IMG/VR virus record: IMGVR_UViG_3300009785_000024
Strand: one strand, 5' to 3'
Source: an uncultured virus (IMG/VR IMGVR_UViG_3300009785_000024)
Lineage: Duplodnaviria > Heunggongvirae > Uroviricota > Caudoviricetes
Length of the DNA: 64,000 bases
The notes under the pieces are model-generated. The model was not told the origin of the DNA. It ran no database searches and saw only the letters and a list, made by a program, of their open reading frames with translations. Shown here one piece after another: positions 40,287-59,945 of the stretch. Position 1 is the stretch's first letter. Each line of letters opens with the position of its first letter. The translations under genes were made by a program, and so were the position numbers.

Positions 40287-40294
40287 TATTTATA
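40287..40294 (-). promoter_or_regulatory. T4-type late promoter
   Basis: TATAAATA overlapping the upstream stop. Confidence 0.65.
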
Positions 40295-44006: not shown

Positions 44007-44029
44007 TTTTATCTCTCTCTATTTAATTT

Positions 44030-44527: not shown

Positions 44528-44552
44528 TTAATTATTCCTCTTCGTTTCTTTA

Positions 44553-44560
44553 TATTTATA
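44553..44560 (-). promoter_or_regulatory. T4-type late promoter
   Basis: TATAAATA. Confidence 0.75.
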
Positions 44561-44583
44561 CAATAACCAGCGTCTAAAAACTA

Positions 44584-44913: not shown

Positions 44914-44916
44914 TTA

Positions 44917-45300
44917 TTATCCTCCAAACACAACAGCAAAGGCGAGAATATCTCCGGTCAATGCTAATGTTCCACTAGAATTTGGTAGTTTAATCGTTCT
45001 ATCAGCTGTTGGATTTTCTACCGTTAATGTTGTTTCAAAGGCGTCAGCTGTGTTACCTTCAAAAATAATGTTTGCATTATTAAAAGTTAAGTCAGTAGTT
45101 GCAATAGCACCTGCTGTTAATACTGATTGAATATCAACCGCAGAAGCACCACCTACTTCTTTAATAGTACTTGAATTTTGTTTAGTATAAAACTTACCAT
45201 CAGCAATGTTCATTGCCAATTCACCAATTTCTAAATCAGATAATTGAGGAACAGCAGAAGCTGTAAAACTTCTTTTTGGTTTTAGGACTTGGTCTGCCAT
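44917..45300 (-). CDS. Short tail-fibre-related protein
   Basis: KRS....P..L..GELA.N..DGK N-terminal module; FEG.T...FETTL.V..P..D..I.LP..SGTL module shared with 58410..59711. Confidence 0.7.
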   Translation of the reverse strand: MADQVLKPKRSFTASAVPQLSDLEIGELAMNIADGKFYTKQNSSTIKEVGGASAVDIQSVLTAGAIATTDLTFNNANIIFEGNTADAFETTLTVENPTADRTIKLPNSSGTLALTGDILAFAVVFGG

Positions 45301-47036
45301 TAGAACAATCCACCGTCAATAGTATTCAATTCAACAGCACCACTTGTTACCGTAAATTGTGTACTATGAAATGACGCAACTCCTTTATTACTTGTACTTG
45401 CGTCTTCGCCAGCAATTGTAATTGAAGAACCTGAAGCAGAAGTATCAATTCCTTCTCCAGCAGAAATAGTTAATGTATTTCCTAATCCAACCGTACCAGT
45501 TCCAGTCTCACCAGCAAGTAAAAGATTTGGATCCGCAAGTTTAGAGTTTGCAATACTTCCTGCTAACATAGCACTTGTAATTCCAAGCGCCTTAACTTGT
45601 AGTTTGTCTGATACTACTTCTATTGTCTGGTTATCTACATTAACATCTAAAGTGTTTCCTGATTTTACCATAGCTGCACCGGCAACTACTTGACCAGCAC
45701 CAGAGAATTGTGATACAGGTAATTCAGTATTGTTTGAAAGTGTATTATCGTTTAATGTTGGTGTACCGTTGTGAGTGAATACATAACCGTTATCACTATT
45801 AGCAGTACCTTCTTCTACGAAAGTAAATGTACCACCAGTTAAGTCAGTACCTAAATTTGCGTCTAATGCTCTTGTTAATCTCCAGTTAGAAGAACCGTCA
45901 CCAACGATTTCTACAAAGTAAATACCGTTTTGTCTAGCTTCTGTTTGGTCTTTAACTACAACTCTGTCATTTACTAGCAATGAAATACCGTCAATTGTTA
46001 AAGCGGCTTGAGTTGCGTTGTTGTCTAATCTTCCATTTGATTGGTCATATGTTGCAGATAAGTTTGCTGTGGTAGCAACTCTACAACTATCTTTTACATC
46101 TAAACCACTTGAAGCACTATCAACATATTCTTTTGTTGCAAGTGAGTCAGCAGCGAAACCTGCTCTATCTTTATAACCACTAGGTACGGTAACCGTTCCA
46201 GTTCCGTGTGGTGTGAAAGTAATATTTCTATTTGCAGCTGATGTAGCAATGTCTTGTCCATCTATTGTTAAATGGTCAACAACTATATTTGTTAATCCAG
46301 CAATGTCAGTTGCAGTAGCACCGAGAGTTAATGCAGTAGTACCTAAGGTTACACCGTCATTTGCAAGTTTAATATTTGATACGGCACCGTCAGCAAGTTT
46401 TGCTGTGCTAATTCCACCGTCTTGTACATTTATAGTAACCGTATTACCGGAAACTGCTGTATCAATCGTTCCATCACCTGTAAGTAATAGAGTCGAGTTA
46501 GTTGAGTAATCTGTTGTTGCACCGGCACTATCTTCAATTGTAAGTGTAGTATCTACAGCGTCAAATCCTAATTGAGCTTCTGTACCAGAGGCAGAGATTA
46601 CTTTTAGAAATTGTCCTTGAGAACCTGCACCGTCAGGTAGTAATAGTGTTGATGAATTTGTTAGTGATAATGGAGCCTTTAAAACAACATTGTTTGAACC
46701 GTTGTTTGTAGCCTCATTAAAAGTTATACGACCAGAGTTAGTGGTTTCGTTACCAATTATAATCTCGTCTATTCTTTTATTTGAATCTGTTGTTATTAGT
46801 TTTTCAGCAGCGACAGCACCGTTCGTTGTTGGAAATAAACTAGTGAAATACTTACCACCAATTACATCAAGGTCGTTTGCGTTTCCTGAACCGTCTACGC
46901 CACCTGCACCTACGAATAGTCTATCACCATTGTTGCCAGCGGTACCTGTACCATATGTAAATGCTAATTCACCAAGTTTTAATGATAGTGGGGCAGCGAC
47001 ATTGGAACTTCTTTTTATTCTGATTATTGTTGACAT
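45300..47036 (-). CDS. Tail fibre protein
   Basis: IKRSS...L..GELA N-terminus, ATKEYVD..GLDVK.S..VATT, DRV.VKDQT...QNGIY, VEEGT blocks. Confidence 0.85.
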
Positions 47037-47066
47037 ATCTTAACTCTCTCTTTTGTTACCTTAAAC

Positions 47067-47324
47067 TTAAAATGAACCACCGTTCAATGTTATTGAACCA
47101 GTAGTAGTCGAAATCTCGTCTCTCACAACAAACTTATCACTTGTTGCAGAGTACTGAATCATACTACCATCTGCTAAGGTTGAAGCGTCTACATCTGCCA
47201 TTAATCTAAATTTCAAAGTAGAGTTGGTTACAGCGGTTTGAGCGGCTGCACCTGCAGGCATAGTAACCGACACTTGTTGCGGTCTACTTATCGTTGAATC
47301 TATTCTTGCTTTAATTTGCGACAC
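47067..47324 (-). CDS. Small virion/tail protein
   Basis: DVDA..L.DGS..QY....KF; ends in GGSF. Confidence 0.6.
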   Translation of the reverse strand: MSQIKARIDSTISRPQQVSVTMPAGAAAQTAVTNSTLKFRLMADVDASTLADGSMIQYSATSDKFVVRDEISTTTGSITLNGGSF

Positions 47325-47347
47325 TTTTAGTCTCCCTTAATTGTTAA

Positions 47348-47355
47348 TATTTATA
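47348..47355 (-). promoter_or_regulatory. T4-type late promoter
   Basis: TATAAATA. Confidence 0.75.
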
Positions 47356-47392
47356 ACCGAAGGGTATTCAAAAACTAATAGTATTAAAATAA

Positions 47393-47734
47393 TTAAACGG
47401 TCACATTAGGACGGACGGTTATTATACCTTCAATAACCCTGGTTACTACACTATCACTAGTTCTCGTAACCTCTACATCATAAACATATCTTGCTGGAGC
47501 ATCCAAGGCACTAGATTGAGCAGAAGTCAAAGATAGTGTTATAATGCCTGTAGCAGGGTTTGCTACGGTCGTAGACATCGCTATCCTAGTCTTTGTACTC
47601 TCATACCCCTTTGCCATTTTAGCGTCAACGGTATGTCCTGTTAGGTCCCAAGCGGCACCATCATTTCCTGCAAGTGTTATATTTGAGGAAAATGTAGTTC
47701 CTTGGTCTATTCTTAGATTTGCTATTGCAGCCAT
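47393..47734 (-). CDS. Baseplate/fibre-attachment beta-sandwich protein
   Basis: NL.IDQG.TF, DLTG.T, G.I.LSLT..Q, RYVYDVE, RVIEG...V.P.V. Confidence 0.75.
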   Translation of the reverse strand: MAAIANLRIDQGTTFSSNITLAGNDGAAWDLTGHTVDAKMAKGYESTKTRIAMSTTVANPATGIITLSLTSAQSSALDAPARYVYDVEVTRTSDSVVTRVIEGIITVRPNVTV

Positions 47735-47738
47735 TTAT

Positions 47739-47975
47739 TTAATCTTTTTTCGGTTCTTCTGTTTGAGTTTCTTCTTCTTTTGGAGCAGTTGGATCAATAC
47801 CTAGAAATTCACAAATCTTAGCATTGTAGTATCTAACTAACACATCAATTTTTTCAAGTTCAACTTCAACTCTCGCTTTATTCTGTACTAACTCTTGTCT
47901 AGCGATAACATAATTTTTAGTTCTATCGTCAAACTTCTCTTCATCATAATCTTTACCATTTATCTTAATTGCCAT
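47739..47975 (-). CDS. Small hypothetical protein (coiled-coil)
   Basis: I.INGK.YD pattern; GGAG RBS and late promoter upstream. Confidence 0.6.
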   Translation of the reverse strand: MAIKINGKDYDEEKFDDRTKNYVIARQELVQNKARVEVELEKIDVLVRYYNAKICEFLGIDPTAPKEEETQTEEPKKD

Positions 47976-47994
47976 AATTATCTCCTTGTATTAT

Positions 47995-48002
47995 TATTTA
48001 TA
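47995..48002 (-). promoter_or_regulatory. T4-type late promoter
   Basis: TATAAATA; marks the downstream boundary of the radical SAM cluster. Confidence 0.75.
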
Positions 48003-48014
48003 AGCGTTCTTATA

Positions 48015-48425
48015 TCAGATTTTGCCATCATATCTAATTTCTTTTTCATAATAGTCTCTAATATCAGGTATCATTCCCATTTGTTCATCTTTAGGAAACG
48101 CTTTTATGATTGGGTCATAAATGTGTTCCTTTCCTTTATATACTTCAAAGTATGGGTCATTGCCAAATAACAAGTCCTTGTCGTTTAACAAATCGTAAAA
48201 CTTATCACCATAATCTCTCTCTATCCACTTTGCATAACATATCGCCACACAATAACTCTTTGCTGGATAGATAAATCTTTCGACTTGTTCTACCCAATGT
48301 CTTTTCGCATTAAGAATAATATCATTATCTTCCCATATAAGATATATCTCCTTATCATTCAATGTATCTTTATGAGTAGGATTTAATCTATGATATACTT
48401 CTTGTTTGAGTTTCCATTCTCTCAT
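48015..48425 (-). CDS. Hypothetical protein, last gene of the radical SAM cluster
   Basis: Overlapping-coupled ORF; YPAKSY and DPYF motifs of unknown function. Confidence 0.65.
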   Translation of the reverse strand: MREWKLKQEVYHRLNPTHKDTLNDKEIYLIWEDNDIILNAKRHWVEQVERFIYPAKSYCVAICYAKWIERDYGDKFYDLLNDKDLLFGNDPYFEVYKGKEHIYDPIIKAFPKDEQMGMIPDIRDYYEKEIRYDGKI

Positions 48426-49182
48426 AACTTATATACTCCACATTCTTACATTCATTCCATTCCGGAATATTAACATTTAACATATTCTGTCTATTTACTT
48501 TATAAAACTTTACCGAATGATACGACTTGAAGAGTTGACGCCATTGTAATATCCAATTTTGTAAGTAATATTGACTAGGGTGTTTATCAGACTTGTAATA
48601 AGGTTGTCCAGCATATATGTTATTAAATTTATTTGACATACTATATATGTCGTGTCCTATTAGGTAAACTTCTTTCAATTCTGCTACTTCTTTACAAGCA
48701 ACAAAACCACTTGCAGGACCTGTTGCCCAAGTTAACTCGTCACCACCGTCAACTAAATCTGTAAAACTTTTTACTTTATCACCTGTCAACCAACTAATGT
48801 TGACCATATTCTTTCCTGTTTCTTTATCATTGTATCCGTGCAAAACAAAACTATTAGAACCTACTCTTTGATTTTCTACAAGTAAACCTGAATTCCTAAT
48901 TGCTCTTATATGTCTATACCCAGGAAAGAAACCATTTACCATATTCTCGTAATGTTCGTGTGGTACAGGATTCCAATCTCTAAAATAACATTTAGCCGTA
49001 TAACTATAACCTGAATGATAAATGCTGTGCATAACAGGATGGTCCATTGCAACTAAAATGTCAGGTGCAAAATCTTTGTACAGATTATTACAACCTAAGA
49101 TAACACCTCGTCCTTGAATAGTAGAAAATTTAAAACCTTTTCTACTTTGACCATTGCCTATAAGAAACGCTCTATTTGCCAT
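48388..49182 (-). CDS. DUF115/MptE-like (sialyltransferase-like Rossmann fold) protein
   Basis: AFLIGNG.SR, GCN.LY....PD.LVA.D, TG..S, VYLIGHD. Confidence 0.6.
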   Translation of the reverse strand: MANRAFLIGNGQSRKGFKFSTIQGRGVILGCNNLYKDFAPDILVAMDHPVMHSIYHSGYSYTAKCYFRDWNPVPHEHYENMVNGFFPGYRHIRAIRNSGLLVENQRVGSNSFVLHGYNDKETGKNMVNISWLTGDKVKSFTDLVDGGDELTWATGPASGFVACKEVAELKEVYLIGHDIYSMSNKFNNIYAGQPYYKSDKHPSQYYLQNWILQWRQLFKSYHSVKFYKVNRQNMLNVNIPEWNECKNVEYISYERMETQTRSIS

Positions 49183-50143
49183 ATCTAAAACTATAAGTAT
49201 CTAACAGATACCTATATCCATTGCAACCATCTTTTAGAGTTTTAACATATCTATAGTGTTCAGTTAAACATCTACCTAAATATTCACACTTACGACATAT
49301 ATCAGAAATATCTTGTTCTTTCTCTTTTTGACACCATACTTCGTAATCAGCAAAACTATCAAGTTCTAAAAAATACTCATTATCATCTTTATCAAAATCT
49401 AATACAGCAAATTTACCATTAGGTGTAATATATAAGTGGTCATCACTATATGCGTTGTATTGATGATTAAGAGAATCTTTTATGTTCTCTTCATTAATAA
49501 ATGCAAATTTATTTTGCTGATATCCTTCTCTTGTTTTTACACTTTTAAATTCTTCTATCATCTTTATTATAAAGTCTTCAAAGTCAGCGTGTGTCGCACC
49601 TAATTGATTTGCTTGATTTGTACTATAAGGTTTAATTTCAAATCCTTTAAAGTTTTTATTATCTACACCTAATTTAATCATCTTTGACCAAATACTTTGT
49701 GTTGATATTTTCATAACTTCTGGTGTTGCCAACATTAAAACAGAAAACTCAACAGGCAAAGTTCTCATATTATCATAAACTTGTTCGTGTTTCTCTCTGG
49801 TCTCCATATCATAACTAACACTTATAAAATAATCAGGATTCATAAACTCACTTCTTACCATAGATAAGTTTGTGTTTATATTAATCTTGTCTTTGTAATA
49901 TATCTTAATTGCGTTAGTAATCTTTTCTAGGTTGTCTTCTTTTAATACACCTATCTCACCACCATATAAATCAATGTGTTCTATGTCTCTATGAGTTTGT
50001 ACTTCATTTAATAGTTCACTTAATTTAAAGTGGTCAATACATTTATTATCACCTAATTGGTCAGGCGTAAGATAACACCAATTACATCTAAAATTACAAA
50101 AATAAGATGGATTGATTGATAGATTAATTTTCCGCTTCGTCAT
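49172..50143 (-). CDS. Radical SAM protein with reduced SPASM-like C-terminus
   Basis: CNFRCNWC, YGGE, NTNLS; C-terminal CRKC-x5-C-x3-H...C. Confidence 0.9.
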   Translation of the reverse strand: MTKRKINLSINPSYFCNFRCNWCYLTPDQLGDNKCIDHFKLSELLNEVQTHRDIEHIDLYGGEIGVLKEDNLEKITNAIKIYYKDKININTNLSMVRSEFMNPDYFISVSYDMETREKHEQVYDNMRTLPVEFSVLMLATPEVMKISTQSIWSKMIKLGVDNKNFKGFEIKPYSTNQANQLGATHADFEDFIIKMIEEFKSVKTREGYQQNKFAFINEENIKDSLNHQYNAYSDDHLYITPNGKFAVLDFDKDDNEYFLELDSFADYEVWCQKEKEQDISDICRKCEYLGRCLTEHYRYVKTLKDGCNGYRYLLDTYSFRYGK

Positions 50144-50684
50144 AATTCAATTCCTCAATAGACTTTAATAACATTCTTTTACTTCTACTAAACAAAATAT
50201 TTCTTAAAATTGTTTCTTTTTCAAATAGTCCTATCCATAGATAATGATAGTCAATATGATTTCTCATAAACAATCTATTCAGTTCAGCATACTCTTGTTC
50301 TTTATCTAAAGTGTAATCTACTCGTTCTAATAGTTCACCCTTTACATTTGCTTGTTGTTCTTTTATTTTATATGATATACCAGATATATGTTTTGTTTTA
50401 TTAATGATATCTGTTATTCTATCTAATTTGTTTTTACCACCTAACGCCAACATTATATAAAATGGCATATGGTGTTTCTTTGTAAAATGTCCTTCGCAAC
50501 TTGATATTGGAAGAAAACCTTTTCTAATAAATTCATGGCAATGAGGTAATACACCTTTCTCAACTTCAATGTCAAAGTCTTTGTCAAATGGACTTACTGA
50601 TAGAGCTAGATACCCATTTGAATAATCTAAATCTTGTTCTTGTGAGGCGTGTATTCTGCCGTTTTCAAATTTTTTATTTTTCAT
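50124..50684 (-). CDS. Hypothetical protein with SSCEGH motif
   Basis: G..PISSCEGH, weakly reminiscent of the TYW3-like SSC.G motif. Confidence 0.55.
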   Translation of the reverse strand: MKNKKFENGRIHASQEQDLDYSNGYLALSVSPFDKDFDIEVEKGVLPHCHEFIRKGFLPISSCEGHFTKKHHMPFYIMLALGGKNKLDRITDIINKTKHISGISYKIKEQQANVKGELLERVDYTLDKEQEYAELNRLFMRNHIDYHYLWIGLFEKETILRNILFSRSKRMLLKSIEELNYDEAEN

Positions 50685-51226
50685 ATATTATAATTAAAAC
50701 ATCCTACAATTCGTTCATTGTTAATTAATTTAAATTTACCAACTTTGTGTTCCCATACTTTACTATGATTTAAAAATATTAAATCGTTCTTACCTGGATA
50801 TAACCAACAAGACAATGACTTTGTTTGTTTATGTCTTACTGATAAAGAACCACCTTGTTCTTCATTACAGGCATTTGTAAAGTACATTAGTATAGCAATG
50901 TTAGCTCCTTCTTTCAAGTCATTGTGCCATAGTGTACTTTCATAGTCTACACCATTGACAATGTTTGGTCGTCCGTGTAATTCGTATTTACTAGACACCT
51001 TACTAATATATTTATCACCCAAATATTTGTGGGTTGTGGCGAGTGCGTGTGCTACCTTTTCAGTATGTACAGCAATCGTATACTCTTTATCTGTTTCTAC
51101 AAAAGGTATTTGTATACCTTCAAAGAATTTAAATGGTGCAAGGTCTTTATGTGGCCACACTCCATTTATTACCAGATTTGATAAATCGTGTTCACCCCTC
51201 ACTTGTCCATCTCCATTTAATTGCAA
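50681..51226 (-). CDS. 2OG-Fe(II) oxygenase
   Basis: WHND..ILMY..GG.L..HKV..ER; the true start may be GTG at 51202. Confidence 0.75.
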   Translation of the reverse strand: MQLNGDGQVRGEHDLSNLVINGVWPHKDLAPFKFFEGIQIPFVETDKEYTIAVHTEKVAHALATTHKYLGDKYISKVSSKYELHGRPNIVNGVDYESTLWHNDLKEGANIAILMYFTNACNEEQGGSLSVRHKQTKSLSCWLYPGKNDLIFLNHSKVWEHKVGKFKLINNERIVGCFNYNI

Positions 51227-51656
51227 GTCTTGTCTTTTCTCCCCAATAAGGCATTGCCCTATGTACTAAATGAGAGTCCATAATAAACATTGCGTTTTGT
51301 CTAAAGTCATATGTCTTATCTTCAACTTGTATTTGTCCACCTTTATTTAAATCACCTTGTAGATATAATATAATAGTCTTCTCTCCTTTTACATCGCTGT
51401 CTGTATGAAAACCTATAATATTCTTTTCTTCGTTTTTACTATTTACAGAAATAACATATCTAACAATACAATGTTTTATGTCAGGTACATTTAATTTACA
51501 AATACTATCTACCCAATCCCAGTCGTCTGGTAATTTCTTGTGAACATTCTTCTCATAGATAGGATATTCTTTACCTAGATTACCTAGTTCAGCAATCATA
51601 TGATTGAGTTCTAAACTTGTCATTACATTATTCTTAACTAACATATTCTCTCTCAT
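51192..51656 (-). CDS. 2OG-Fe(II) oxygenase
   Basis: FHTD..TIILYL..GG..HRA..R. Confidence 0.78.
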   Translation of the reverse strand: MRENMLVKNNVMTSLELNHMIAELGNLGKEYPIYEKNVHKKLPDDWDWVDSICKLNVPDIKHCIVRYVISVNSKNEEKNIIGFHTDSDVKGEKTIILYLQGDLNKGGQIQVEDKTYDFRQNAMFIMDSHLVHRAMPYWGEKTRLAIKWRWTSEG

Positions 51657-52728
51657 AAGGTGTCATTTCTATATGTGATTTATTATTTGCAATCAAAATA
51701 TCTTTTCCAATTCTTTTCATCTTCTCACAATGTTTCTCTACAACTCCTGCCTCTTTATAATCTTTCACGGTCTTTCTACAACCATTACATATGTTAAACA
51801 TAGGACAACTATAGCAACTTTTCTTCATTGTAGATAAATTTAAGTCATCTTGTAAAGGTGTAAAAAACTTACCTTTCATTTCTTCTTCAAAGTCTATCGC
51901 TTTGTCTTTATCATCACCAAATGCACCACAACTATAGTAGTCACCATCTGGTTGTAAACATCTTATACCTTCATCACATTTTCTACTTAACGGACAACTT
52001 GTAGCAGTATCATTTATTGCTAACATCATCTGTCTAGTATTAAACTCCCAAGGTGCTAGACCTGCCTTATAAATCTCTACATACTTCTCATATATATCTG
52101 ATAACAAAAACGGCTCTTTTTGTTCGCCACTTGCCATTGCATAATTCAATTTACATTCTACACCTGTCTTCTCTTCTCTCCAGAAGTTATGTAATGTGCC
52201 TTCAGGTATTTTCTGTTCAGACATCTTCTTTGCAAGTTCAACATTCTTTATTGCGTTGTGTTCATTCTCTCTTGTAATAACGGATATAAAGTCTGGTCTA
52301 TAACCACAATGTTCTAACATTGCGTCTGAACACTTATAAAAGTCCTCTTCTGTAAATTCAGAATAGTCACCTTTTAATCTACCACCACCATATTGAAAAG
52401 AAGTTGTGATACCAACTCTTTCGTTATTAAATAAGTCAACCCACTTACTAGGTTTCTTATAGAACGGCCATAAGTTTGTCGTTAATGCAAGTGAAGTAGT
52501 ATATTCTCTTTCGTCTAACCAATCAATAATCTTCCAATAGTAATTAGGTTCCATCATTAATGGGTCACCACCATTTACTATGATTGTTTTTGTTTCTGGG
52601 AATCTTTCTAAAAAACGAAATATCTGGTCATGTTTTAACCAGTTCTTTTTCTCATCTGTAAGCTGCGTACTAGAACAAAATGAGCATTTGAAATTACAAA
52701 GTTCAGTAGGTTTAATTATTAAATCCAT
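51634..52728 (-). CDS. Radical SAM/SPASM protein
   Basis: IKPTELCNFKCSFC, GGDPL; C..C..PDG.YYSC and CYSC-x5-C-x2-C...C. Confidence 0.92.
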   Translation of the reverse strand: MDLIIKPTELCNFKCSFCSSTQLTDEKKNWLKHDQIFRFLERFPETKTIIVNGGDPLMMEPNYYWKIIDWLDEREYTTSLALTTNLWPFYKKPSKWVDLFNNERVGITTSFQYGGGRLKGDYSEFTEEDFYKCSDAMLEHCGYRPDFISVITRENEHNAIKNVELAKKMSEQKIPEGTLHNFWREEKTGVECKLNYAMASGEQKEPFLLSDIYEKYVEIYKAGLAPWEFNTRQMMLAINDTATSCPLSRKCDEGIRCLQPDGDYYSCGAFGDDKDKAIDFEEEMKGKFFTPLQDDLNLSTMKKSCYSCPMFNICNGCRKTVKDYKEAGVVEKHCEKMKRIGKDILIANNKSHIEMTPYEREYVS

Positions 52729-53378
52729 TTTCCTATCCAGTTCAATCCTGTAGTAGATTCTTTATTTCTAATCCAGTAATCTTTTAGTTTACCTTCTTTA
52801 ACTTTGTCAAAACCAAACTGCCACATTATTTCTCTATGATATGGTTCTTTCTGTGCTCTCATTTGATTCATTGTCAGGTGTAACCAATCAAAGTAAGTAC
52901 CAGACGGACATAATATATCTCTACCTTTAAATATGTTTATCGTATCACACCACATTTGTCTAATTAGTTTTCTGTTTTCTGTTGGAGGTCTGTTCTTCAT
53001 GTATCCTGCATATTTTAAAGAACCGACTATAACATACTCATTATAGATATGAAACATACCTACGCCCTTAATATAAGTGCTAGGCGTACCATTTTGAACC
53101 CATTGTCTCTCGCCTTTTGTTTTTTGTGCAATCTCGTATAGTTCAGGATCCTCTTCTTTCTTGCCTAACCATAAAAACATATGTGCTCGTCTACCATCTA
53201 TTCTAGGAAGATATGGTTTCTCAACAGGAAAGTAATCTAGTTGTACTTCGATATGTTTAGGAAAATTATAGCCTAATTTAGTTTGCGATATAGTTTCGCT
53301 GTACTCGTACATCTTCGATATATCGGTGCGTAAGCTTGTAAACACATTCATCCAACTCCTCCTTGTATCTATAATCAT
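52719..53378 (-). CDS. Hypothetical protein (start possibly 53312)
   Basis: Long ORF coupled to flanking radical SAM genes; no recognisable motif. Confidence 0.6.
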   Translation of the reverse strand: MIIDTRRSWMNVFTSLRTDISKMYEYSETISQTKLGYNFPKHIEVQLDYFPVEKPYLPRIDGRRAHMFLWLGKKEEDPELYEIAQKTKGERQWVQNGTPSTYIKGVGMFHIYNEYVIVGSLKYAGYMKNRPPTENRKLIRQMWCDTINIFKGRDILCPSGTYFDWLHLTMNQMRAQKEPYHREIMWQFGFDKVKEGKLKDYWIRNKESTTGLNWIGKWI

Positions 53379-54330
53379 GGTTCATAAAACAGCCAAGTGT
53401 ACATCTATCTAAAAATTCACAACTACTACAATTATACTTCTCTAGGAAAGAGTTTTCTATTATACTATTGTCTCTTGGTTTAATGGGCGACTTGTATTGA
53501 CTTATATCTTGTTCTTCTTGTACAAGGTTACCACATTGACATAATGTACCATCTGCTAATACAAGTTTTGAAACTCTACAACTTGCATAATTCTTTTTGT
53601 TAAATATCCAATCTCTAACAGGATGAACATTAGGATATTTGTCAACACAATGTTTAAAAAACTTTAATAATAGTTCATCGCCAGGCATATTAAACTTTGC
53701 GTGTTCATCTGGCATATAATAATCAAAGTAAATATACTTACCTTGTTTATACAGATAGTCAAAGTATTCATCACCTTCATTTAAATAAAAGTTAATATTA
53801 GGCTTTGTAAGTAAACAAGAAAAACAGGTTACTTCATCACCCCAAAATTCTACATTAGATTTAAATATCTCAAAGTCTTTTTTATTAAATCTACCTCGTG
53901 GGTCATAACTTGTTGTAAGTCTACTAGGTATATCTTCTTCTCTGGACCAAGTGAGTAAGTCCATAATAAGTTCATTACCTTCATCTGAGGTAACCAAGTT
54001 AGACACCCAATTGATTGAAAATTCTTTATTGTGTTTTTGACATATCTTTTTTATGCCTTTTACTAGAAGTTTATATCCGTCATTTAAATCTTTGTTATAG
54101 ATTGCAGGTGCAAAGACTTCGCCACCCATAATATTAAAGGTGACCTTCATATACATTTCTTTTGAGATAAATTTTTCTATAGAAGGAAGTTTGTCAACCA
54201 CATTATCAACACCGATTTTATTGTCGTGGTTCTGCCAACAGAAATTACAACGCAAATTACAAAATTCAAATAAATGAATAGTGTACTCTTGCTCTGGGTC
54301 TCTTTTGGGGTCTATTAAAAACTCTCGCAT
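53278..54330 (-). CDS. Radical SAM/SPASM protein
   Basis: CNLRCNFC, MGGE; ASC..DG..CQC and CSSC-x5-C-x3-C...C. Confidence 0.92.
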   Translation of the reverse strand: MREFLIDPKRDPEQEYTIHLFEFCNLRCNFCWQNHDNKIGVDNVVDKLPSIEKFISKEMYMKVTFNIMGGEVFAPAIYNKDLNDGYKLLVKGIKKICQKHNKEFSINWVSNLVTSDEGNELIMDLLTWSREEDIPSRLTTSYDPRGRFNKKDFEIFKSNVEFWGDEVTCFSCLLTKPNINFYLNEGDEYFDYLYKQGKYIYFDYYMPDEHAKFNMPGDELLLKFFKHCVDKYPNVHPVRDWIFNKKNYASCRVSKLVLADGTLCQCGNLVQEEQDISQYKSPIKPRDNSIIENSFLEKYNCSSCEFLDRCTLGCFMNHDYRYKEELDECVYKLTHRYIEDVRVQRNYIAN

Positions 54331-54338
54331 TTAAACTC

Positions 54339-55454
54339 CTATGAGTTTGCGAATAGTCTGTATTTTCCTAGTTTGTCTGTATCGTTAGATTTCTTTAATG
54401 AGAAGAGATATTGTAAAAATGTATAATTAATATTTCCAATATCAAATCTAGGAATAAAAGATAGACTAGATGGACTATTCACGGTTTCAGTTATAATTGT
54501 ATCAAAGTCAGTAGAAGATAAACTTGAAGCACAAGCTTTATCTAAATGGTTCATAAAGTAATCAGGATCCGGAGAGTTTTGGAAATCATATAGGTCTTTA
54601 ATTAATGCTTTCAATGCAGTTTGTTTGTCTGTTGAAAGACCGTCAATGTTTGCAATATTTACAGCACCTACATTTGCAGTAGGTTTTTGCGTAAATACAT
54701 CTTCGTCAGCAAATGGTGCTAATGGTGTAATACCTGAAAATGGATTGTCATTATTTAAATCAACATCATCACTAGTATAACCTAATGCAGTTTGTTGATT
54801 AGTATTCAAAAGATTTAGAGCAGCACCTTCTCTACTATCTGTTAATACTTCTTTATAAAATCTTTTTAAGAATAAATGCCAAGTAGACAATAAGTTTGCT
54901 TGGTGAGTATCAGCACCTGCAAAGTATTCGCCTAATAATAATTCAATTGAGAAATTTAAATTAAGAGCTTTAATTCTATCTAAATCAAGTGTAGGTAATA
55001 CATTAAAATATCCTGCAACATCTCCTAGACCAGCATTAATTTTTGTTAGCGCTAGCGTGTGAGTAGGTTGCAATTGTGTATTTGCAATAATTTTTTCGTG
55101 GTGTAAATTAATATCTAAAAACTTCTGTACTGCTGTTTGGTCAACAAATGGTAACATAGTTTTTAACCAGGTTACTGATAAGTTTAAGTATGCTTCACTA
55201 TCGCAGTAAATAATAACTTTGGTACCTAGAGTACTTTGTTTTAATTTTACATCTTCAAAGAAACCAGTTAAGTCAGTATACTTACCTGCCATTGCATTAA
55301 CATTGTGTGAATAGTTAATTAAAGTTCCTCTGTATGTAGTTTGCAGTTCCTGGTGCATTTCATTACCAGTTTCTGCTGATATTACATATCTGTTTGTATG
55401 ACAATCAATTGAATCGTCAAACGCTAAATAGACTTTATTAAATAAGTGTAGCAT
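54339..55454 (-). CDS. Hypothetical protein of the radical SAM cluster
   Basis: 371-aa ORF in operon order; no confident motif (KVIIYCD). Confidence 0.65.
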   Translation of the reverse strand: MLHLFNKVYLAFDDSIDCHTNRYVISAETGNEMHQELQTTYRGTLINYSHNVNAMAGKYTDLTGFFEDVKLKQSTLGTKVIIYCDSEAYLNLSVTWLKTMLPFVDQTAVQKFLDINLHHEKIIANTQLQPTHTLALTKINAGLGDVAGYFNVLPTLDLDRIKALNLNFSIELLLGEYFAGADTHQANLLSTWHLFLKRFYKEVLTDSREGAALNLLNTNQQTALGYTSDDVDLNNDNPFSGITPLAPFADEDVFTQKPTANVGAVNIANIDGLSTDKQTALKALIKDLYDFQNSPDPDYFMNHLDKACASSLSSTDFDTIITETVNSPSSLSFIPRFDIGNINYTFLQYLFSLKKSNDTDKLGKYRLFANS

Positions 55455-55455
55455 A

Positions 55456-56121
55456 TTAGTTTTTCTCTTTACCTTTTAAATATTCTTTTGTATCAAATTT
55501 ACCTTCGGCAATTGCCCAAGTCATTAAGAATAGTGGATTACTTTCTGTCGCCCAATATTCAAATAAAGATTTACCTTTAAACATATAATCTTTAAAGTAC
55601 TTCGTATAGTTCTTAACAATACCTTCTTTTTGTATTTGATAATAACTATAAAATTCTTTGTGTTTTAATAATGAAACAAAGTTAATACCTCTAACATCTT
55701 CTGTCTCGTCTTTAGGATAACTCTCAACAAATTCATTAAAAGCACCTTCACCAACGATTGACATATTATACAATGGTAGACTTTCTAATTTGCCTTCCCA
55801 CTTGTCAAGTATTTCTTTGTTCTTTTCTATAACACTCTTATATTTATCTGTCTTTGACAACCCCTTGTGTTCAAATAATACAGCGATTATTTCTTTTTCT
55901 AATTTAGGTATATTTACTAACATTTGTGTGTTAAGATATTCACTAATTAGTTCTTCGTCCATATTTAATATATCACAAGGTATATCTAAATTACTTAAAT
56001 AGGTTAGAAACTGAGCACCTTTTAATGTGCTGTTTTCGTAATCAATAAGATAACTTTCTGTCTTATCTTCAAAGTATTTTTTTAAGTCTTTCAATTCAAT
56101 CGGTACAATAGTATTAATCAT
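55456..56121 (-). CDS. Hypothetical protein of the radical SAM cluster
   Basis: Start overlaps the stop of the candidate precursor gene (TAATG). Confidence 0.65.
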   Translation of the reverse strand: MINTIVPIELKDLKKYFEDKTESYLIDYENSTLKGAQFLTYLSNLDIPCDILNMDEELISEYLNTQMLVNIPKLEKEIIAVLFEHKGLSKTDKYKSVIEKNKEILDKWEGKLESLPLYNMSIVGEGAFNEFVESYPKDETEDVRGINFVSLLKHKEFYSYYQIQKEGIVKNYTKYFKDYMFKGKSLFEYWATESNPLFLMTWAIAEGKFDTKEYLKGKEKN

Positions 56122-56894
56122 TATCTTCTTCCTCTACTTCCGTGACAACTACTATGACAGCTACTATGACATATAGTTTTTGTTAATGTATAAGTGTTAC
56201 CTCTTTCAGTAGAATATGCGTTTGCAAGGCTCGACATAAACGATTCTAAATTTGTATCGTCAATTGTTTGACCAGATTGTAAACTACTAGGTTGTGATGG
56301 ATTTAATGTTGTTCTTTGTGCAGTTGTTAAGTGTGCAATTTGTGTATCCGAATATTGTGTTCCTGCACCTGTCATACTAACTATAGCGTATGTATTTTTG
56401 ATATTAGTATAATTATTCATTTCTGCTTTTAGTGTACCGTAAATATTGTTTGCAGTAATTACTGAACCTGCATTACCGATATTAGAACCTGTGATACCAA
56501 TTGATACAGCACTTATTACTGCTAAAGTATTAACCGTACCTACAGCACCTGAAGAAGTGCCTGATATAATATCGTTTTGTAAGAATCCTGTTTGACCAGC
56601 ACCTGGATTAATTGTTCTTAATTTTAATACATTGCTAGAATAACTAACTACGATACCAGTTGTTGCAGTTATCGTAGAGTTAACCGTTTCACCTGCTGTA
56701 TAAGTTCCAGTCACACCTGTTAGTGTTAATTCAAATCCGTCAACAACACCACCAAAATCAGCAGAAGTAAATGAAGAGTGTCCTGGTAGATTATCAGTAC
56801 CCCATACAATATGGTGGTCTGCTACATCTGTTACCAGTTCTTCAAATCTATCAACTATATTTTGACTTGTTATCGGGTTGTTTAAAGTTACCAT
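56121..56894 (-). CDS. Virion-like protein with C-terminal (CHxS)3-RGRR tail; candidate radical SAM substrate
   Basis: T/S/G-rich body with a tail-type module (YTAGETV...ATTG.V; F...D.I.G.SSGA.GTV); ends TKTICHSSCHSSCHGSRGRR. Confidence 0.8.
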   Translation of the reverse strand: MVTLNNPITSQNIVDRFEELVTDVADHHIVWGTDNLPGHSSFTSADFGGVVDGFELTLTGVTGTYTAGETVNSTITATTGIVVSYSSNVLKLRTINPGAGQTGFLQNDIISGTSSGAVGTVNTLAVISAVSIGITGSNIGNAGSVITANNIYGTLKAEMNNYTNIKNTYAIVSMTGAGTQYSDTQIAHLTTAQRTTLNPSQPSSLQSGQTIDDTNLESFMSSLANAYSTERGNTYTLTKTICHSSCHSSCHGSRGRR

Positions 56895-57919
56895 TTCGCC
56901 TCACTTTGTTTTTTTAAGTGTTTCATAAGAGATTTAGGAGCGCCACATATGTCGTCTTGCCATGCTAATTGGTGACAATCGCCACCACAATACTTAAATA
57001 CTTCACACTCAAAGCATTTAGGATTTCTTGCTACTTCACAAGCAACATTTTCTAATCTCTTAGGACTATTTATAAGTTCTACTAGAGGGTCATCTATAGT
57101 TCCAAAATTAAACTCGGGAGCTGCATTAGGACAACCACCTATTGTGCCAGTTGCGTTAAGTGTAAATAGTTTTTGTTCACAATCTCGGCAGAAAGTGCCT
57201 TCTTTTGTTGAACCAGTATCAAATTTTGAGTAAATTGTTTCAAAAAACTCATTATCAAACCAATCTCTTGTGTTATACTGAATAGATTGCTCGTGCATTT
57301 TTAAAAACCACTTATCTTGTTCTATATTTCTAGGAAATATTTCTGGATGCAAGTTTGCATTACCATTTCCAGTCAATCTTTCAAGTGCCATTTCTTTTAC
57401 ACCTAAATCTTTGACCCATTTAAGTAATTCAATAGGTTCAATTCTAATTGTGTCTTTGGTTACTGATATGAAGAGTTTAATATCAACACCTTCACTAATT
57501 AAAGTCTCTACATTCTTACGCCATAAGTTTGCTTGTTTCTCATTTGCAAATCTTATGTTAGGATCCCAACTAGTTCCACATCTATTTTTAAGTGGACCTT
57601 TAATGAAGTCAATGTGTTCTTGTTTTAGTTTAAATGTTAAGTTAGAAGTTATGCCCATTGATTGTTGAATCCACAAATCTTTTGTGTTCTCATAGACATA
57701 TTGCATTTCAGACACAGGAACTAAAAACGGTTCGCCACCGTGTAGTTCTAAATGTGCTGTATCGTGTTTGTGAAAATTGTATTTTCTGAAATCTTGTAAC
57801 CACTTAATGGTTTTATCTGGATTCCAATAGACTTTAGGACCATTTGAACCTGAAGTAAAACAATGTTTACAATTCAAGTTGCAGGTTTCGGTTGTTTTTA
57901 AATAAAACATCCAATTCAT
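56888..57919 (-). CDS. Radical SAM/SPASM protein
   Basis: KTTETCNLNCKHC, HGGEPFL; CRDC..G.IGGC and CFEC-x5-C-x3-C...C. Likely start MNWMFY (TAATG overlap). Confidence 0.93.
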   Translation of the reverse strand: MNWMFYLKTTETCNLNCKHCFTSGSNGPKVYWNPDKTIKWLQDFRKYNFHKHDTAHLELHGGEPFLVPVSEMQYVYENTKDLWIQQSMGITSNLTFKLKQEHIDFIKGPLKNRCGTSWDPNIRFANEKQANLWRKNVETLISEGVDIKLFISVTKDTIRIEPIELLKWVKDLGVKEMALERLTGNGNANLHPEIFPRNIEQDKWFLKMHEQSIQYNTRDWFDNEFFETIYSKFDTGSTKEGTFCRDCEQKLFTLNATGTIGGCPNAAPEFNFGTIDDPLVELINSPKRLENVACEVARNPKCFECEVFKYCGGDCHQLAWQDDICGAPKSLMKHLKKQSEAKW

Positions 57920-58398
57920 TATATAACTCCTATACTTAACCCCCAAGTATCTGCTTCGTTTTCAACATAATGTTTTACACCTTGTTCTATGAATATTCCT
58001 TCATCATCATATACTGGTTTAATAACACCATCTAAAGATACTTTCTTTTTGCCTTTGACAACATATAAGTAAACATCTTTATCATCTTTATGTTCTTTAA
58101 AACTAATACCTGGTTTCTGATTTACAAATAAATGAATATCTTGTCTTTTCTTTCCTGTGATATTCAATACTACTTCGTCTAAAACTTCTTTTAACCAGGC
58201 TACATCTTCTAAGCCTTCCACCTTAATAGTTTTAAATCTATCGTACTCTCTTATCCATTCTCCATAAGACATATGGTCTTTAACCTCACGGTCAAGTCCT
58301 TCTTCGTCTATGTAAAATAGTTGTCTTGCTTCGTATCTAGTGTGTGATTGGATTTCTTCTTTTAATCTGGAAATCCATAAGATTGTTTGTTCGTCCAT
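57919..58398 (-). CDS. JmjC/cupin-type oxygenase
   Basis: SF.EHKD..DV....V.G.K...IFI..GVKH (HxD...H). Confidence 0.72.
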   Translation of the reverse strand: MDEQTILWISRLKEEIQSHTRYEARQLFYIDEEGLDREVKDHMSYGEWIREYDRFKTIKVEGLEDVAWLKEVLDEVVLNITGKKRQDIHLFVNQKPGISFKEHKDDKDVYLYVVKGKKKVSLDGVIKPVYDDEGIFIEQGVKHYVENEADTWGLSIGVI

Positions 58399-58409
58399 AA
58401 TATATCTCC

Positions 58410-59711
58410 TTATTTACCAACAACAGCTTCTATAACTCTCTCTTCGTTAGAATCGTCATTGACTAAACTTTTTCCAATTAATGCACCGTTTCTTGGTTCT
58501 GCTTCAGCTCTAGCACATCCTGCAATACTACAAGATACTAACATATCGCCTTTTCTTACAGGACCACATACTCTTACTGGTACTCTTCCTGTCATTGCTA
58601 CCGTAGCGGTAACACCTTCTAAACTGCCATTCATAATAAAGGCAGGTTTTTCTGATTGAACACCAATAACTTTTGTGCAATGGTTTTCTGTACATATAGT
58701 TACCTCAGCTGTGCCACCTATACATAAGACGGTACCTACTGGATATTCTCTATCAGATTTATACTTTTCTGCCAAGTCAGCATATCTTGCTGATGTAGCA
58801 GTTGTTGTTAAAATATTTGTTGATGGATTGTAATATAATCCTGAATCTGCTTTTAGAACATTTGAACCTGAAGTACTATCAGCAAAAGTTAAATATCTTG
58901 TTGCGTTTTGAGTATTTTCAGTAGTTAAATCTACGGCACTTGATAATGAAGCAGTACCTGTAATAGTATTTGCAACTAAAGTGTCAACCGTTAATGTTGC
59001 AGAATTAAATCCTGATAGTTTTGCAATCGTAACCGAGTTATCAGCAATTTGTGAAGTACTTACAGCATTATCTGCTATCATAGTTTGTGTAACCGTATTC
59101 GTATCACCAGAAGTAATAAGAGTACCACTAGCGTCAGGTAGTGTAATTACATTATCTTGTGATGGGTCGTCTACTCGTAATGTAGTTTCAAAACTATTAG
59201 GAGTAGCACCTTCAAATTGCATTGAAGCACCATTGATTGTTAATCCAGCACCAACAAGTGTACCACCGGCAGATATACCACCTGTTGTGTTTAATTGTTC
59301 GTTACCAAAATCAATTGTACCACTTGCAGAAGTAATTGAAGAAGTACCAATCTGTATGTTCGCAATCTCAGCTGTTGTTGCAACATCAATTGTTGATAGA
59401 CCAGTTAAGTTTGTATTTAATCCGATTGTTAATGTATCTGGATTTGATACCGTTGCAGTAAGACCTGTACCACTCGCTACGGTTAATGTGTTACCAGAGG
59501 CAATACCTTGTACATTCGTTCCATCTGTTAATGTGAAACCAGCAGCTGCAATTGCAATACCATTGATTTCGTTAACAGCACCAATTACAGAAGTAGCAGA
59601 TAAAGTAGCATCCAGAGTGGCAATATCACCAAAATCTGAGGACGCTAATGCGTTAAATTCTATTCGTAATTTATCTAAACTATCTGTTTCTGTTACCTGT
59701 CTTACAGCCAT
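58410..59711 (-). CDS. Tail fibre protein with C-terminal ADLAE-type (autoproteolytic chaperone-like) domain
   Basis: T/S/G-rich body; YADLAEKY..G.V..IGG..EV, VA..GRVPV.V.G.V.KGD.LV. Confidence 0.8.
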   Translation of the reverse strand: MAVRQVTETDSLDKLRIEFNALASSDFGDIATLDATLSATSVIGAVNEINGIAIAAAGFTLTDGTNVQGIASGNTLTVASGTGLTATVSNPDTLTIGLNTNLTGLSTIDVATTAEIANIQIGTSSITSASGTIDFGNEQLNTTGGISAGGTLVGAGLTINGASMQFEGATPNSFETTLRVDDPSQDNVITLPDASGTLITSGDTNTVTQTMIADNAVSTSQIADNSVTIAKLSGFNSATLTVDTLVANTITGTASLSSAVDLTTENTQNATRYLTFADSTSGSNVLKADSGLYYNPSTNILTTTATSARYADLAEKYKSDREYPVGTVLCIGGTAEVTICTENHCTKVIGVQSEKPAFIMNGSLEGVTATVAMTGRVPVRVCGPVRKGDMLVSCSIAGCARAEAEPRNGALIGKSLVNDDSNEERVIEAVVGK

Positions 59712-59713
59712 TT

Positions 59714-59941
59714 TTATTTATCCTTACACATATTTTTTATTAAATCTTTTATTTCAAACAACTCTTGCTTTAAACTATTTATCTCTCTACACATTGACTT
59801 CATTTGGTTAAGATTACCTTTTCGCATTTGTATTCTTTTCATATACAACTCATATTCGCTTGAGTTTGTATTAATGATACCACCTGATTCCGTATCTCTT
59901 ATTAAAAATTCTTGTTGTTCAACTTTCAGAAATCTTGTCAT
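59714..59941 (-). CDS. Conserved small T4-like protein
   Basis: L.RD..SG.IINT...Y and EIN.LK.EL.EIK.L, typically found after VrlC-like genes. Confidence 0.7.
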   Translation of the reverse strand: MTRFLKVEQQEFLIRDTESGGIINTNSSEYELYMKRIQMRKGNLNQMKSMCREINSLKQELFEIKDLIKNMCKDK

Positions 59942-59945
59942 AATT

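Follow-up and report, generated by a model that had tools for sequence, protein, structure and literature searches.

Introduction

The closest characterized system to the genes described here is HXS, a bacterial antiphage system that works in the periplasm, where it keeps phage DNA from entering (Li et al., Nat Commun 2026, PMC13128918). According to the part of that report cited here, HXS comprises HxsA, which has five HxS repeats, the radical S-adenosylmethionine (SAM) enzymes HxsB and HxsC, and HxsD; a mass change of +8 Da was mapped to SHRSS of HxsA, the repeats are essential, and the HxsA effector carries a peptidoglycan-binding domain and is exported to the periplasm. Here we analyze a phage-encoded cassette at positions 48015–58398 of a 64,000-nt stretch of DNA from an uncultured virus of the Caudoviricetes (IMG/VR record IMGVR_UViG_3300009785_000024; the whole stretch is called the window hereafter), in which four radical SAM enzymes accompany a 257-aa protein (the tail protein, 56121–56894) that ends in a Cys/His/Ser repeat. 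Like HXS, the cassette contains a whole protein with HxS, basic-rich repeats, more than one radical SAM enzyme and a small partner without a known fold. Unlike HXS, it places three CHxS units at the extreme C-terminus and follows them with RxRR, it holds a cupin and four radical SAM enzymes, or as many as about nine, and it is phage-encoded among fiber genes, with one homolog being a virion protein. By membership tests the cassette falls outside HXS: with the models TIGR03976–03979, the 14 proteins scored at most 31.7 bits for HxsB (cut-off 370) and 29.0 bits for HxsC (cut-off 267.9), and gave no match to HxsA or HxsD at E ≤ 0.01. The tail protein itself has no Pfam domain of any kind, and its N-terminus, MVTLNNPITSQNIVDRFEE, is not hydrophobic-looking by eye. 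The first-pass annotation of this locus, which proposed a pathway that modifies a virion protein, knew of no characterized example; HXS now provides a characterized analog in bacteria, but in no virion.

Three other groups of enzymes offer comparisons. In Methanococcus voltae, CrpC installs thioethers on the whole protein CrpA, and, as far as the cited part of the report describes it, this pair resembles the proposed cassette in having a SPASM enzyme, an adjacent Cys-rich full-size protein and thioether (ranthionine) cross-links, and differs in being archaeal, with one enzyme, Cys throughout the protein, no His/Ser repeat and no virion context (PMC13692751). The triceptide synthases (HtkB, HaaB, XyeB, YhhB, FxsB) are of the SPASM type and, within repeated three-residue motifs, join the Cβ at i + 2 to an aromatic side chain, His-C2 included; HtkB, in the portion of the study cited, forms a His-C2 to Lys-Cβ link (PMC11499958). 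The three H-x-(S/N/A) triads of the phage tail match this substrate format, a likeness of format only, but triceptide substrates are short precursor peptides with leaders, the invariant Cys before His has no counterpart there, and the phage enzymes scored 15–32 bits with the XyeB, YhhB, FxsB and AmcB models, for which the NCBIfam cut-offs are 370–450. The best full-length family matches, also among the closest solved sequences for the first phage enzyme, rSAM-A, are anaerobic sulfatase maturases (anSME) and the maturases of sactipeptides and ranthipeptides, which act on Cys or Ser of peptides or proteins (CteB 5wgg, PapB, anSME 4k36–39); the phage enzymes reach about a tenth of these family cut-offs, and rSAM-A scored 41.8 bits with the anSME model TIGR03942 against a cut-off of 349. 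The motif recognized in sulfatase maturation is (C/S)xPxR, which the phage tail does not contain.

Radical SAM genes in large phages have been recorded before. Marine T4-like genomes and the pelagimyophage 'host recognition cluster' hold many radical SAM genes of unassigned function, and up to a dozen iron-sulfur enzymes lie in the 'host recognition' region of marine T4-like phages, as stated in the sections cited (PMC5332604, PMC7029224). Jumbo-phage genome papers list their radical SAM genes, in the sections cited, as miscellaneous (PMC5468394, PMC8066314), and a term search of a comparative jumbo-phage review (PMC7824862) gave 0 mentions of radical SAM, rSAM, JmjC or SPASM. Our literature searches on the tail motif, on radical SAM combined with phage, virion or RiPP (peptide made on ribosomes and modified after translation), and on triceptides combined with bacteriophage brought up no account of either the tail or the cassette. 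In the following, we argue that the genes probably form a RiPP-like maturation cassette for a virion protein of the fiber module, with the chemistry proposed by analogy.

Results

A single repeat-tailed protein lies within a compact cassette

Open reading frame (ORF) calls on the 64-kb window placed 14 ORFs in the 48015–58398 region, all on the minus strand. The spacing between adjacent ORFs runs from a gap of 39 nt to an overlap of 38 nt, except for 53278–54330 and 52719–53378, which overlap by 101 nt when the longest ORFs are taken, and the genes that flank the cluster on both sides are fiber-like. The presumed substrate, encoded at 56121–56894 (minus strand), is predicted to have a folded body and a flexible tail, and ends CHSSCHSSCHGSRGRR; the tail, CHSS CHSS CHGS RGRR and then the stop, occupies 56124–56171 of the same strand. 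This TICHSSCHSSCHGSRGRR-stop ending is the sole motif of its kind in the six frames of the window. A six-frame scan for CxxxCxxC ORFs likewise returned exactly four, all inside the cluster. The first-pass description of 14 tightly coupled co-directional genes surrounded by tail genes, with four radical SAM proteins and one protein with a Cys/His/Ser-repeat tail, is therefore borne out in these respects.

The tail is fixed, and the body that carries it varies

A degenerate DNA pattern of the tail found 102 stretches in IMG/VR. The loci found in this way, together with L001 and L002, contain 126 tail-bearing ORFs, all of which stop directly after R-x-R-R and whose N-terminal parts range from 124 to 318 aa. 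Two short tandem copies of the tail protein occur in many loci, and a few tails (in L090, L098, L117 and L120) have four or five CHxS units rather than three. Because this pattern demanded the conserved residues, loci fetched by a profile of the neighboring protein u221 were used as a tail-independent test; this set consists of the best 80 of 157 confirmed IMG/VR relatives. An ORF that ends CHxxCHxxCHxxRxRR-stop is present at every one of these 80 viral loci, and at 79 it ends where u221 starts.

Among the 81 tails of the tail-independent set, the Cys, the His and the three Arg residues are present without exception (81/81), and V, I or L invariably precedes the first Cys. The fourth repeat position is Ser in 78, 67 and 73 of the 81 tails for units 1, 2 and 3, respectively, and otherwise Asn or Ala; this tolerance fits chemistry at the Cβ or Cα, not at the hydroxyl. 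The tails are encoded by 65 distinct 48-nt DNAs that yield 29 distinct peptides; each Cys and each His occurs with either of its two codons, and Ser is specified by AGY and TCN. Since so many DNAs with mixed codons encode so few peptides, selection appears to act on the tail peptide. When the last 20 residues were removed, 85 unique full-length proteins separated into 7 groups without BLAST similarity, suggesting a variable folded body that carries one fixed tail.

The AlphaFold2 (AF2) model of the tail protein, built from a 33-row alignment, has a predicted local distance difference test score (pLDDT) of 89 and shows a helix/sheet core with an inserted β-barrel (residues 52–129). The pLDDT of the last 16 residues is 63 falling to 51, and since the tail follows the last β-strand of a confident fold and is itself of low pLDDT, it should be exposed. 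The inserted barrel (~85 aa) is missing from shorter homologs of 170–210 aa and is the only part of the protein with clear structural look-alikes. Its best structural match is a baseplate chain of Klebsiella phage KP1 (9f4a; Z 7.7, root-mean-square deviation 2.1 over 70 residues), and its BFVD matches are cyanophage structural proteins (E ~1e-5). The barrel resembles those of phage baseplates, tail tips and fibers, and likewise those of translation factors, so that the structural likeness is a weak pointer to a phage structural role. Whole-protein fold matches were uncharacterized viral proteins only, the homolog of phage Atu_ph07 among them; Foldseek against the PDB returned nothing at E ≤ 0.001, and VIA-wide and BFVD fold searches, in which the core was searched within the whole model, returned the inserted barrel only, besides uncharacterized viral proteins.

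Four distinct radical SAM enzymes accompany the tail protein

All four enzymes are encoded on the minus strand and carry the CxxxCxxC motif at residues 16–26. The gene for rSAM-A (352 aa, 56888–57946) lies directly upstream of the tail protein gene, and its product has CNLNCKHC and the full SPASM Cys set. rSAM-B (350 aa, 53278–54330) has CNLRCNFC and a C-terminal, SPASM-like Cys set that aligns with that of rSAM-A; rSAM-C (364 aa, 51634–52728), also a radical SAM/SPASM protein, has CNFKCSFC; and rSAM-D (323 aa, 49172–50143) has CNFRCNWC. Against the Pfam model Radical_SAM (PF04055, cut-off 29.5 bits), the four score 23.0–29.6 bits and only rSAM-C passes, at 29.6 bits, whereas all four match the PHROG family phrog_1802 'radical SAM' with E-values from 2.5e-30 to 1.2e-65; judged by these profiles, all four are members of the radical SAM superfamily. 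Their pairwise identities are 17–22%. In the alignment, rSAM-A, rSAM-B and rSAM-C carry CX2CX5CX3C plus an upstream Cys, and rSAM-D carries the shortened set CX2CX5C only, so that the Cys-rich C-termini first described for all four hold in SPASM form for three. The SPASM model TIGR04085 (cut-off 27 bits) is passed by rSAM-A (33.1 bits), while rSAM-C (24.5 bits) and rSAM-B (19.8 bits) stay below it and rSAM-D gave no match.

The NCBIfam families that rSAM-A and rSAM-C match along their full length are peptide or protein maturases, namely DynA, anSME and PapB (E ~1e-11). The DynA-like match of rSAM-C covers the full length at 7.4e-11, and the best full-length family E-values are 9.6e-11 for PapB and 7e-11 for anSME. 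Matches to MoaA, QueE, NrdG and viperin are weaker, or limited to the N-terminal cluster-binding part. The possibility raised at first pass, that the enzymes would group with cofactor- or nucleotide-modifying families, is thus not what we find: they group with none of these. A profile search gave 8vpo, the sactisynthase-type 5wgg and anSME as the closest solved structures of rSAM-A, by N-terminal similarity only, and phmmer of rSAM-A against PDB sequences returned nothing at E ≤ 0.01. A comparison of the cluster with PADLOC-DB produced only pVip N-terminal matches of 19–33 bits and a generic '2OG' model.

To assign orthogroups, and for that use alone, a quick midpoint-rooted FastTree was computed from 107 representatives, at 60% identity, of 339 unique radical SAM-like ORFs together with the four enzymes of the window. 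The tree contains a clade for each of them: A with 21 representatives (support 96), B with 29 (support 100), C with 8 (support 100) and D with 21 (support 99). Each of the clades A–D unites a window enzyme with members from RSL2/RSF1-like jumbo phages and from Bdellovibrionota metagenome-assembled genomes (MAGs); an Atu_ph07-like member is counted in clades A, B and D, and none in the 8-member clade C. On this tree, the four enzymes belong to four old orthogroups common to phage and Bdellovibrionota lineages, and the fact that each orthogroup spans these lineages argues for four distinct steps. A fifth clade (28 representatives, support 99) gathers the extra enzymes of loci that have 6–9 radical SAM genes. 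One Bdellovibrionota locus (L118, 17180–18919) extends the set by a 579-aa B12-binding radical SAM protein, a hint that the pathway of that lineage may include a methylation.

Enzymes and tail protein are conserved together in phages and Bdellovibrionota

The nearest virus record (G001; 119,869 bases, CheckV 82%) has the same four enzymes. A tblastn search with rSAM-A found 15 GenBank/RefSeq records that represent 12 distinct cultured jumbo phages (41–51% identity), whose hosts are Agrobacterium, Sinorhizobium, Ralstonia, Burkholderia and Pseudomonas. In six of six cultured lineages examined, all found through the enzyme (Atu_ph07, RSL2, Phosso, pPa_SNUABM_DT01, SURPRISE13 and RsoM3USA), the tail gene comes directly after rSAM-A; the third tail unit of pPa_SNUABM_DT01 is CHSA. 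Together with the 80 of 80 loci fetched by u221, this makes the co-conservation with the CHxS protein, on which the first-pass annotation had asked for a check, strict. A megablast search with the cluster and a tblastn search with the tail protein against a phage collection found nothing, and this collection may lack close relatives of the window.

Where loci have long flanks, their gene maps repeat one order, fiber-like – cupin – rSAM-A – tail protein – u221 – (u371) – rSAM-B – rSAM-C – rSAM-D – u136, which holds in marine T4-like contigs, in phages of the Atu_ph07 and RSL2 types, and in 270–480-kb contigs. Counts from these maps refer to 104 related loci, scored by the best match of each window protein. 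The remaining genes, two 2-oxoglutarate (2OG) oxygenase-like proteins, u186, u219 and u264, are accessory, with best matches in 11–33 of the 104 loci. The loci of RSL2, SURPRISE13 and RsoM3USA (L002, L215 and L216) have one or two annotated dihydrofolate reductase genes between radical SAM genes.

In bacteria, represented by one genome for each of 185,579 species, the tail pattern occurs in 16 stretches, 9 of which are, by record title, of Bdellovibrionota type; some of the other matches are clearly phage contigs binned into MAGs, for instance L110, which has the gene order of the window itself. Two Halobacteriovoraceae MAGs carry the genes on contigs of 1.29 Mb and 382 kb, where their neighbors include serine dehydratase, an Mrp/NUBPL-type ATPase, and acyl-CoA and 3-hydroxyacyl-CoA dehydrogenases. 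The surroundings are those of ordinary housekeeping genes and not of a recognizable prophage. Judged by this contig context, the cassette is chromosomal in Bdellovibrionota MAGs. Proteins with a Peptidase_S74 fiber-chaperone domain adjoin the cassette in both Halobacteriovoraceae MAGs (L114, 2169–3410; L118, 6263–7300); this intramolecular chaperone domain is typical of trimeric fibers. The u221 profile matched 17 of 401 sampled Bdellovibrionota genomes (~4%) with E-values from 1e-26 to 1e-62, and none of the other 384.

One homolog of the tail protein is found in virions

The virion proteome of Atu_ph07 (Table S5 of PMC6102473, the part of that paper used here) lists the tail protein homolog Gp170 at 31.89 kDa, with 8 unique peptides and 35.16% coverage. 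Gp170 was detected in gel bands 1–9 and was most abundant in the top band, band 1, where proteins of 87–139 kDa peak, while other proteins of ~30 kDa peak in bands 7–8. The same list includes Gp176, the homolog of the fiber-like protein fib433 (see below), and does not include Gp165–169, Gp171 or Gp172, which are the enzymes, the cupin and u221 (Gp169). The masses that we computed for the Atu_ph07 tail protein, Gp176 and Gp177 equal the values of the table exactly, and the gene numbering is therefore the same in the table and in our analysis. The Atu_ph07 homolog is thus virion-associated, which gives outside support to the earlier proposal that the modified protein would be a virion protein.

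The cupin and two oxygenase-like proteins

The cassette opens with a small JmjC-like cupin (159 aa, 57919–58398, minus strand) that has an HxD...H iron triad and passes the Pfam model Cupin_2 (30.9 bits, cut-off 27.2). H103, D105 and H143 are invariant among 22 orthologs. The L114 ortholog passes JmjC_2 (32.3 bits, cut-off 22), while the window protein passes Cupin_2 only. Profile matches to MINA53 (3.3e-4), YxbC (3.5e-3) and NO66 (0.06) are all weak. MINA53 and YxbC are of the protein His/Arg/Asn hydroxylase type, and by this weak likeness the cupin may hydroxylate His or Arg.

Two accessory genes of the minus strand encode probable 2OG/Fe(II) oxygenase-like proteins. The first (181 aa, 50681–51226; HND...H) falls just under the Pfam model 2OG-FeII_Oxy_3 (25.8 bits, cut-off 27), and a homolog is the best match in 33 of the 104 loci. 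The second (154 aa, 51192–51656; HTD...H) matches phrog_274 at 8.9e-12 and the PADLOC '2OG' model at 21.4 bits, has no Pfam match, and has a homolog as the best match in 11 of the 104 loci. The first-pass assignment of a JmjC-type and two 2OG oxygenases is therefore weakly supported: Cupin_2 is passed, the 2OG matches lie below the cut-off or are missing from Pfam, and sequence inspection finds the HxD...H pattern in all three proteins.

Companion proteins

All companions are encoded on the minus strand. Beside the tail protein lies u221 (221 aa, 55456–56121; phrog_20767), a conserved protein of unknown function that is present in the same 15 phage records as rSAM-A (tblastn). Its AF2 model has a pLDDT of 90, and a fold search with it gave no match (best Z 4.2, over residues 1–54). 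A complex prediction for the tail protein and u221 scored 0.00, a result that speaks neither for nor against their pairing. The cassette closes with the second conserved protein of this kind, u136 (48015–48425; phrog_20737), which has a homolog in 56 of the 104 loci. Its best matches include jumbo-phage-sized contigs and Bdellovibrionota loci, and the ESM Atlas gave only sub-0.9, YunG-like leads for it.

The protein u371 (54339–55454) is frequent in marine T4-like members, a homolog being the best match in 36 of the 104 loci, and gave no usable match in the ESM Atlas. The accessory u219 (52719–53378) has a homolog in 24 of the 104 loci and u186 (50124–50684) in 16 of the 104. Searches of Pfam, PHROG and NCBIfam returned no family match for u371 and u219 and no meaningful one for u186. 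The accessory u264 (48388–49182; phrog_30607) is confined to close relatives of the window (15 of the 104 loci) and begins with an LIGNGQS motif, which may resemble the GNGPS motif of sialyltransferase and DUF115-type enzymes.

A late-promoter-like motif precedes the tail protein gene

The first-pass annotation stated that the cluster contains no exact TATAAATA, which is a late-promoter-like motif of the T4 type. This is incorrect, because one is present on the coding strand at 57067–57074, in the 3' part of the rSAM-A gene and 173 nt upstream of the tail protein start. The plus strand of the window has no copy, all 13 being on the coding (minus) strand, and their total is not above chance (13 against 10.3 expected; 22 of 100 shuffles reach 13). 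Most of them stand just upstream of ORF starts, for example at 47995–48002, 47348–47355 and 44553–44560. In relatives, the motif lies 176–197 nt or, in another group, 33–42 nt upstream of the tail protein gene; the motif at 176–197 nt falls within conserved LINS codons, to which protein conservation may contribute. Within 400 nt, 38 of 106 tail protein genes have the motif, and as these sequences are related the counts are not independent. With this arrangement, the substrate may be transcribed additionally at late times, compared with the enzymes. The earlier idea that the cluster is read through from upstream genes needs amending to that extent, as the substrate gene has a late-promoter-like motif of its own. 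Scans for sigma-70 promoters (86 against 81.5 expected) and for terminators (10 against 6.4 expected) were at chance.

Contigs of metatranscriptomic libraries from three studies cover the cluster. One library, X1, has a single contig of 18,072 nt (depth 131) that spans the whole 47000–60000 stretch with 41 differences over 13,001 nt (99.7% identity); the bins covered in the others are 29 of 30 for X5, 19 for X7 and 12 for X8. Such contigs cannot show transcription, its level, strand or starts, and DNA carry-over is possible, so the coverage is not taken as evidence of expression; uncovered parts carry no meaning. The 18-kb contig of X1 may be a long late transcript or carried-over phage DNA alike.

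Composition and the neighboring fiber-like gene

The G+C content of the cluster (48000–58000) is 0.30–0.34, compared with 0.36–0.39 in the downstream fiber genes (40000–48000), and the GC skew at 48–52 kb is more strongly negative than in the neighboring fiber genes. The lower G+C content and the skew may reflect a separate history of the insert.

Just upstream of the cassette, 58410–59711 (minus strand) encodes the 433-aa fiber-like protein fib433, whose residues 301–394 match phrog_22593 and phrog_19602 (tail fiber); its homolog is the best match in 58 of the 104 loci. Its C-terminal domain is conserved (ADLAExY...GVxSxxPxxMN...GRxP) and gave no match in Pfam. Within the C-terminal 130 residues, ADLAExY, GVxSxxPxxMN, GRxPxK and KG are invariant across 43 sequences, from marine phages to Atu_ph07. 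The domain is Cys-rich in the phage of the window, yet the Cys residues are not conserved; each is kept in only 13–25 of the 43 sequences, and a conserved Cys partner in this domain is thereby ruled out.

Discussion

The gene content of the cassette, its co-conservation, the orthology of its enzymes, the modeled fold of the presumed substrate and the virion location of one homolog are established. They support the first-pass reading of a dedicated pathway that modifies a virion protein; it could be challenged computationally on two points, the family membership of the enzymes and their co-conservation with the CHxS protein, and neither result went against it. In the scheme that we propose, the 56121–56894 product would be a folded, late-expressed protein of the fiber module, and its tail, (Cys-His-x-Ser)x3-Arg-x-Arg-Arg, would be the substrate of four non-redundant radical SAM enzymes, assisted by the JmjC-like Fe(II) cupin and, in the lineage of the window, by the two 2OG-oxygenase-like proteins; u221 and u136 would be obligatory helpers without a known fold. 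Each radical SAM enzyme would abstract hydrogen from a set carbon of the tail and install a cross-link, the likeliest in each CHxS unit being a Cys-S thioether, the product of sacti- and ranthipeptide enzymes and of CrpC, and/or a His-C2 to Cβ(i + 2) cyclophane of the HtkB kind, and the side chains of His or Arg might be hydroxylated by the cupin or the oxygenases. Once finished, the protein would be built into the particle, probably into a fiber or the baseplate, where a rigid cross-linked, possibly metal-binding basic tail could anchor the protein or contact the host envelope. Modification of the tail as such, the kind of bonds and their purpose we infer by analogy with the characterized systems described above.

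Several observations weigh against this proposal. Every enzyme-family score is far below the curated cut-off (NCBIfam). A recognition domain of the RRE (RiPP recognition element)/PqqD type is absent from the Pfam matches of the 14 proteins (E ≤ 0.01), a test that rests on those matches and on the u221 model, which has no match above Z 4.2. In the part of the Atu_ph07 study used here (PMC6102473), the table comes without a peptide list, so that the modified or unmodified state of the tail is not readable from it; the loading buffer listed has no reducing agent; and at least one other protein, of 36 kDa, also peaks in band 1. Given a buffer without reductant, the high gel position of Gp170 could reflect disulfides or an SDS-stable fiber oligomer. 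The N-domain of the Atu_ph07 protein belongs to a different BLAST family from that of the window, for which reason the virion location of the window protein is extrapolated. Moreover, the RefSeq annotation of the RSL2 homolog is 'hypothetical protein', with 'virion structural protein' assigned to its neighbor. Finally, tail modification has been observed in no member so far, which also favors the first of the three rival explanations considered here, each of which we consider less likely than the maturation cassette.

In that first rival, the Cys/His tail would be an unmodified metal or iron-sulfur site. It might carry clusters for delivery to the radical SAM enzymes, or bind metal in a trimeric fiber, and the enzymes would have other targets, such as fiber proteins, a small molecule or the host envelope. 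Cys and His, present three times each at constant spacing, are classic metal ligands, and marine T4-like genomes rich in radical SAM genes also carry iron-sulfur assembly genes, according to the section cited (PMC5332604). However, a pure carrier would not be expected in a virion proteome from which the enzymes are missing, nor would seven unrelated N-domains, tandem duplicates, a baseplate-like barrel and a late promoter of its own, and the three invariant C-terminal Arg residues and the fixed distance to the stop are left unexplained. We regard this explanation as unlikely.

A conflict system of the HXS kind, in which a matured DNA-binding effector would block the genome entry of competing phages (superinfection exclusion) or counter an HXS-type host defense, seems to us quite improbable. 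It draws on what HxsA needs for its function according to the cited part of the HXS report (PMC13128918), namely its HxS repeats and basic residues along with a small partner and two radical SAM enzymes, and on the three HxS triads and the RxRR end of the phage tail. The models of HxsA and HxsD, though, found nothing at E ≤ 0.01, those of HxsB and HxsC remained far below their NCBIfam cut-offs, and PADLOC gave generic radical SAM matches only. The effector features are also missing, as the Pfam matches include no peptidoglycan-binding domain and the N-terminus does not, by eye, resemble a signal peptide. The gene stands among fiber genes behind a late-promoter-like motif, one homolog is in virions, and in Bdellovibrionota chromosomes the cassette adjoins fiber-like S74-chaperone proteins.

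It is highly improbable that the cassette makes a small molecule or cofactor from a peptide, in the style of pyrroloquinoline quinone (PQQ) or mycofactocin, with the tail as a core that is cut off after modification and the N-domain as a large leader or scaffold: such cofactors do come from C-terminal cores processed by SPASM enzymes plus oxygenases, and the cluster contains several oxygenases, but Pfam, PHROG and NCBIfam recognized a protease or exporter in none of the 14 genes, the N-domain has a confident fold of phage structural type that persists in Atu_ph07 virions, and, apart from the cupin, the oxygenases are accessory genes, with best matches in 11 and 33 of the 104 loci.

Returning to the maturation cassette, a more specific version of it can be put forward tentatively, although we doubt it more than we trust it. 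Radical SAM cross-linking of the C-terminal Cys-His repeat might be a step of virion assembly not seen before, one that equips a small adhesin or adaptor of the host-attack fibers with a covalently cyclized, possibly metal-bearing 'warhead' or lock. Predatory Bdellovibrionota and large phages of the marine T4-like, Atu_ph07-like and RSL2-like kinds might have exchanged the device among them. In that case, the anomalous top-of-gel migration of Gp170 would stem from a covalent bond, made by the enzymes, that joins it to a fiber protein or to itself.

The question is directly testable, as cultured carriers and a published virion proteome exist. If the tail is modified, this would be, as far as our literature searches show, the first RiPP-type radical SAM finishing of a phage particle protein, and it would bring four new enzyme families with one short, fixed and easily assayed substrate. 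It would also be widespread, with at least 157 IMG/VR contigs, 12 cultured jumbo phages and ~4% of the sampled Bdellovibrionota genomes. It would explain the abundant iron-sulfur enzymes in the 'host recognition' region of marine T4-like phages and would constitute a phage-side counterpart of the bacterial HXS defense. If the more specific version were true as well, the cassette would be cell-attack hardware common to large phages and predatory Bdellovibrionota.

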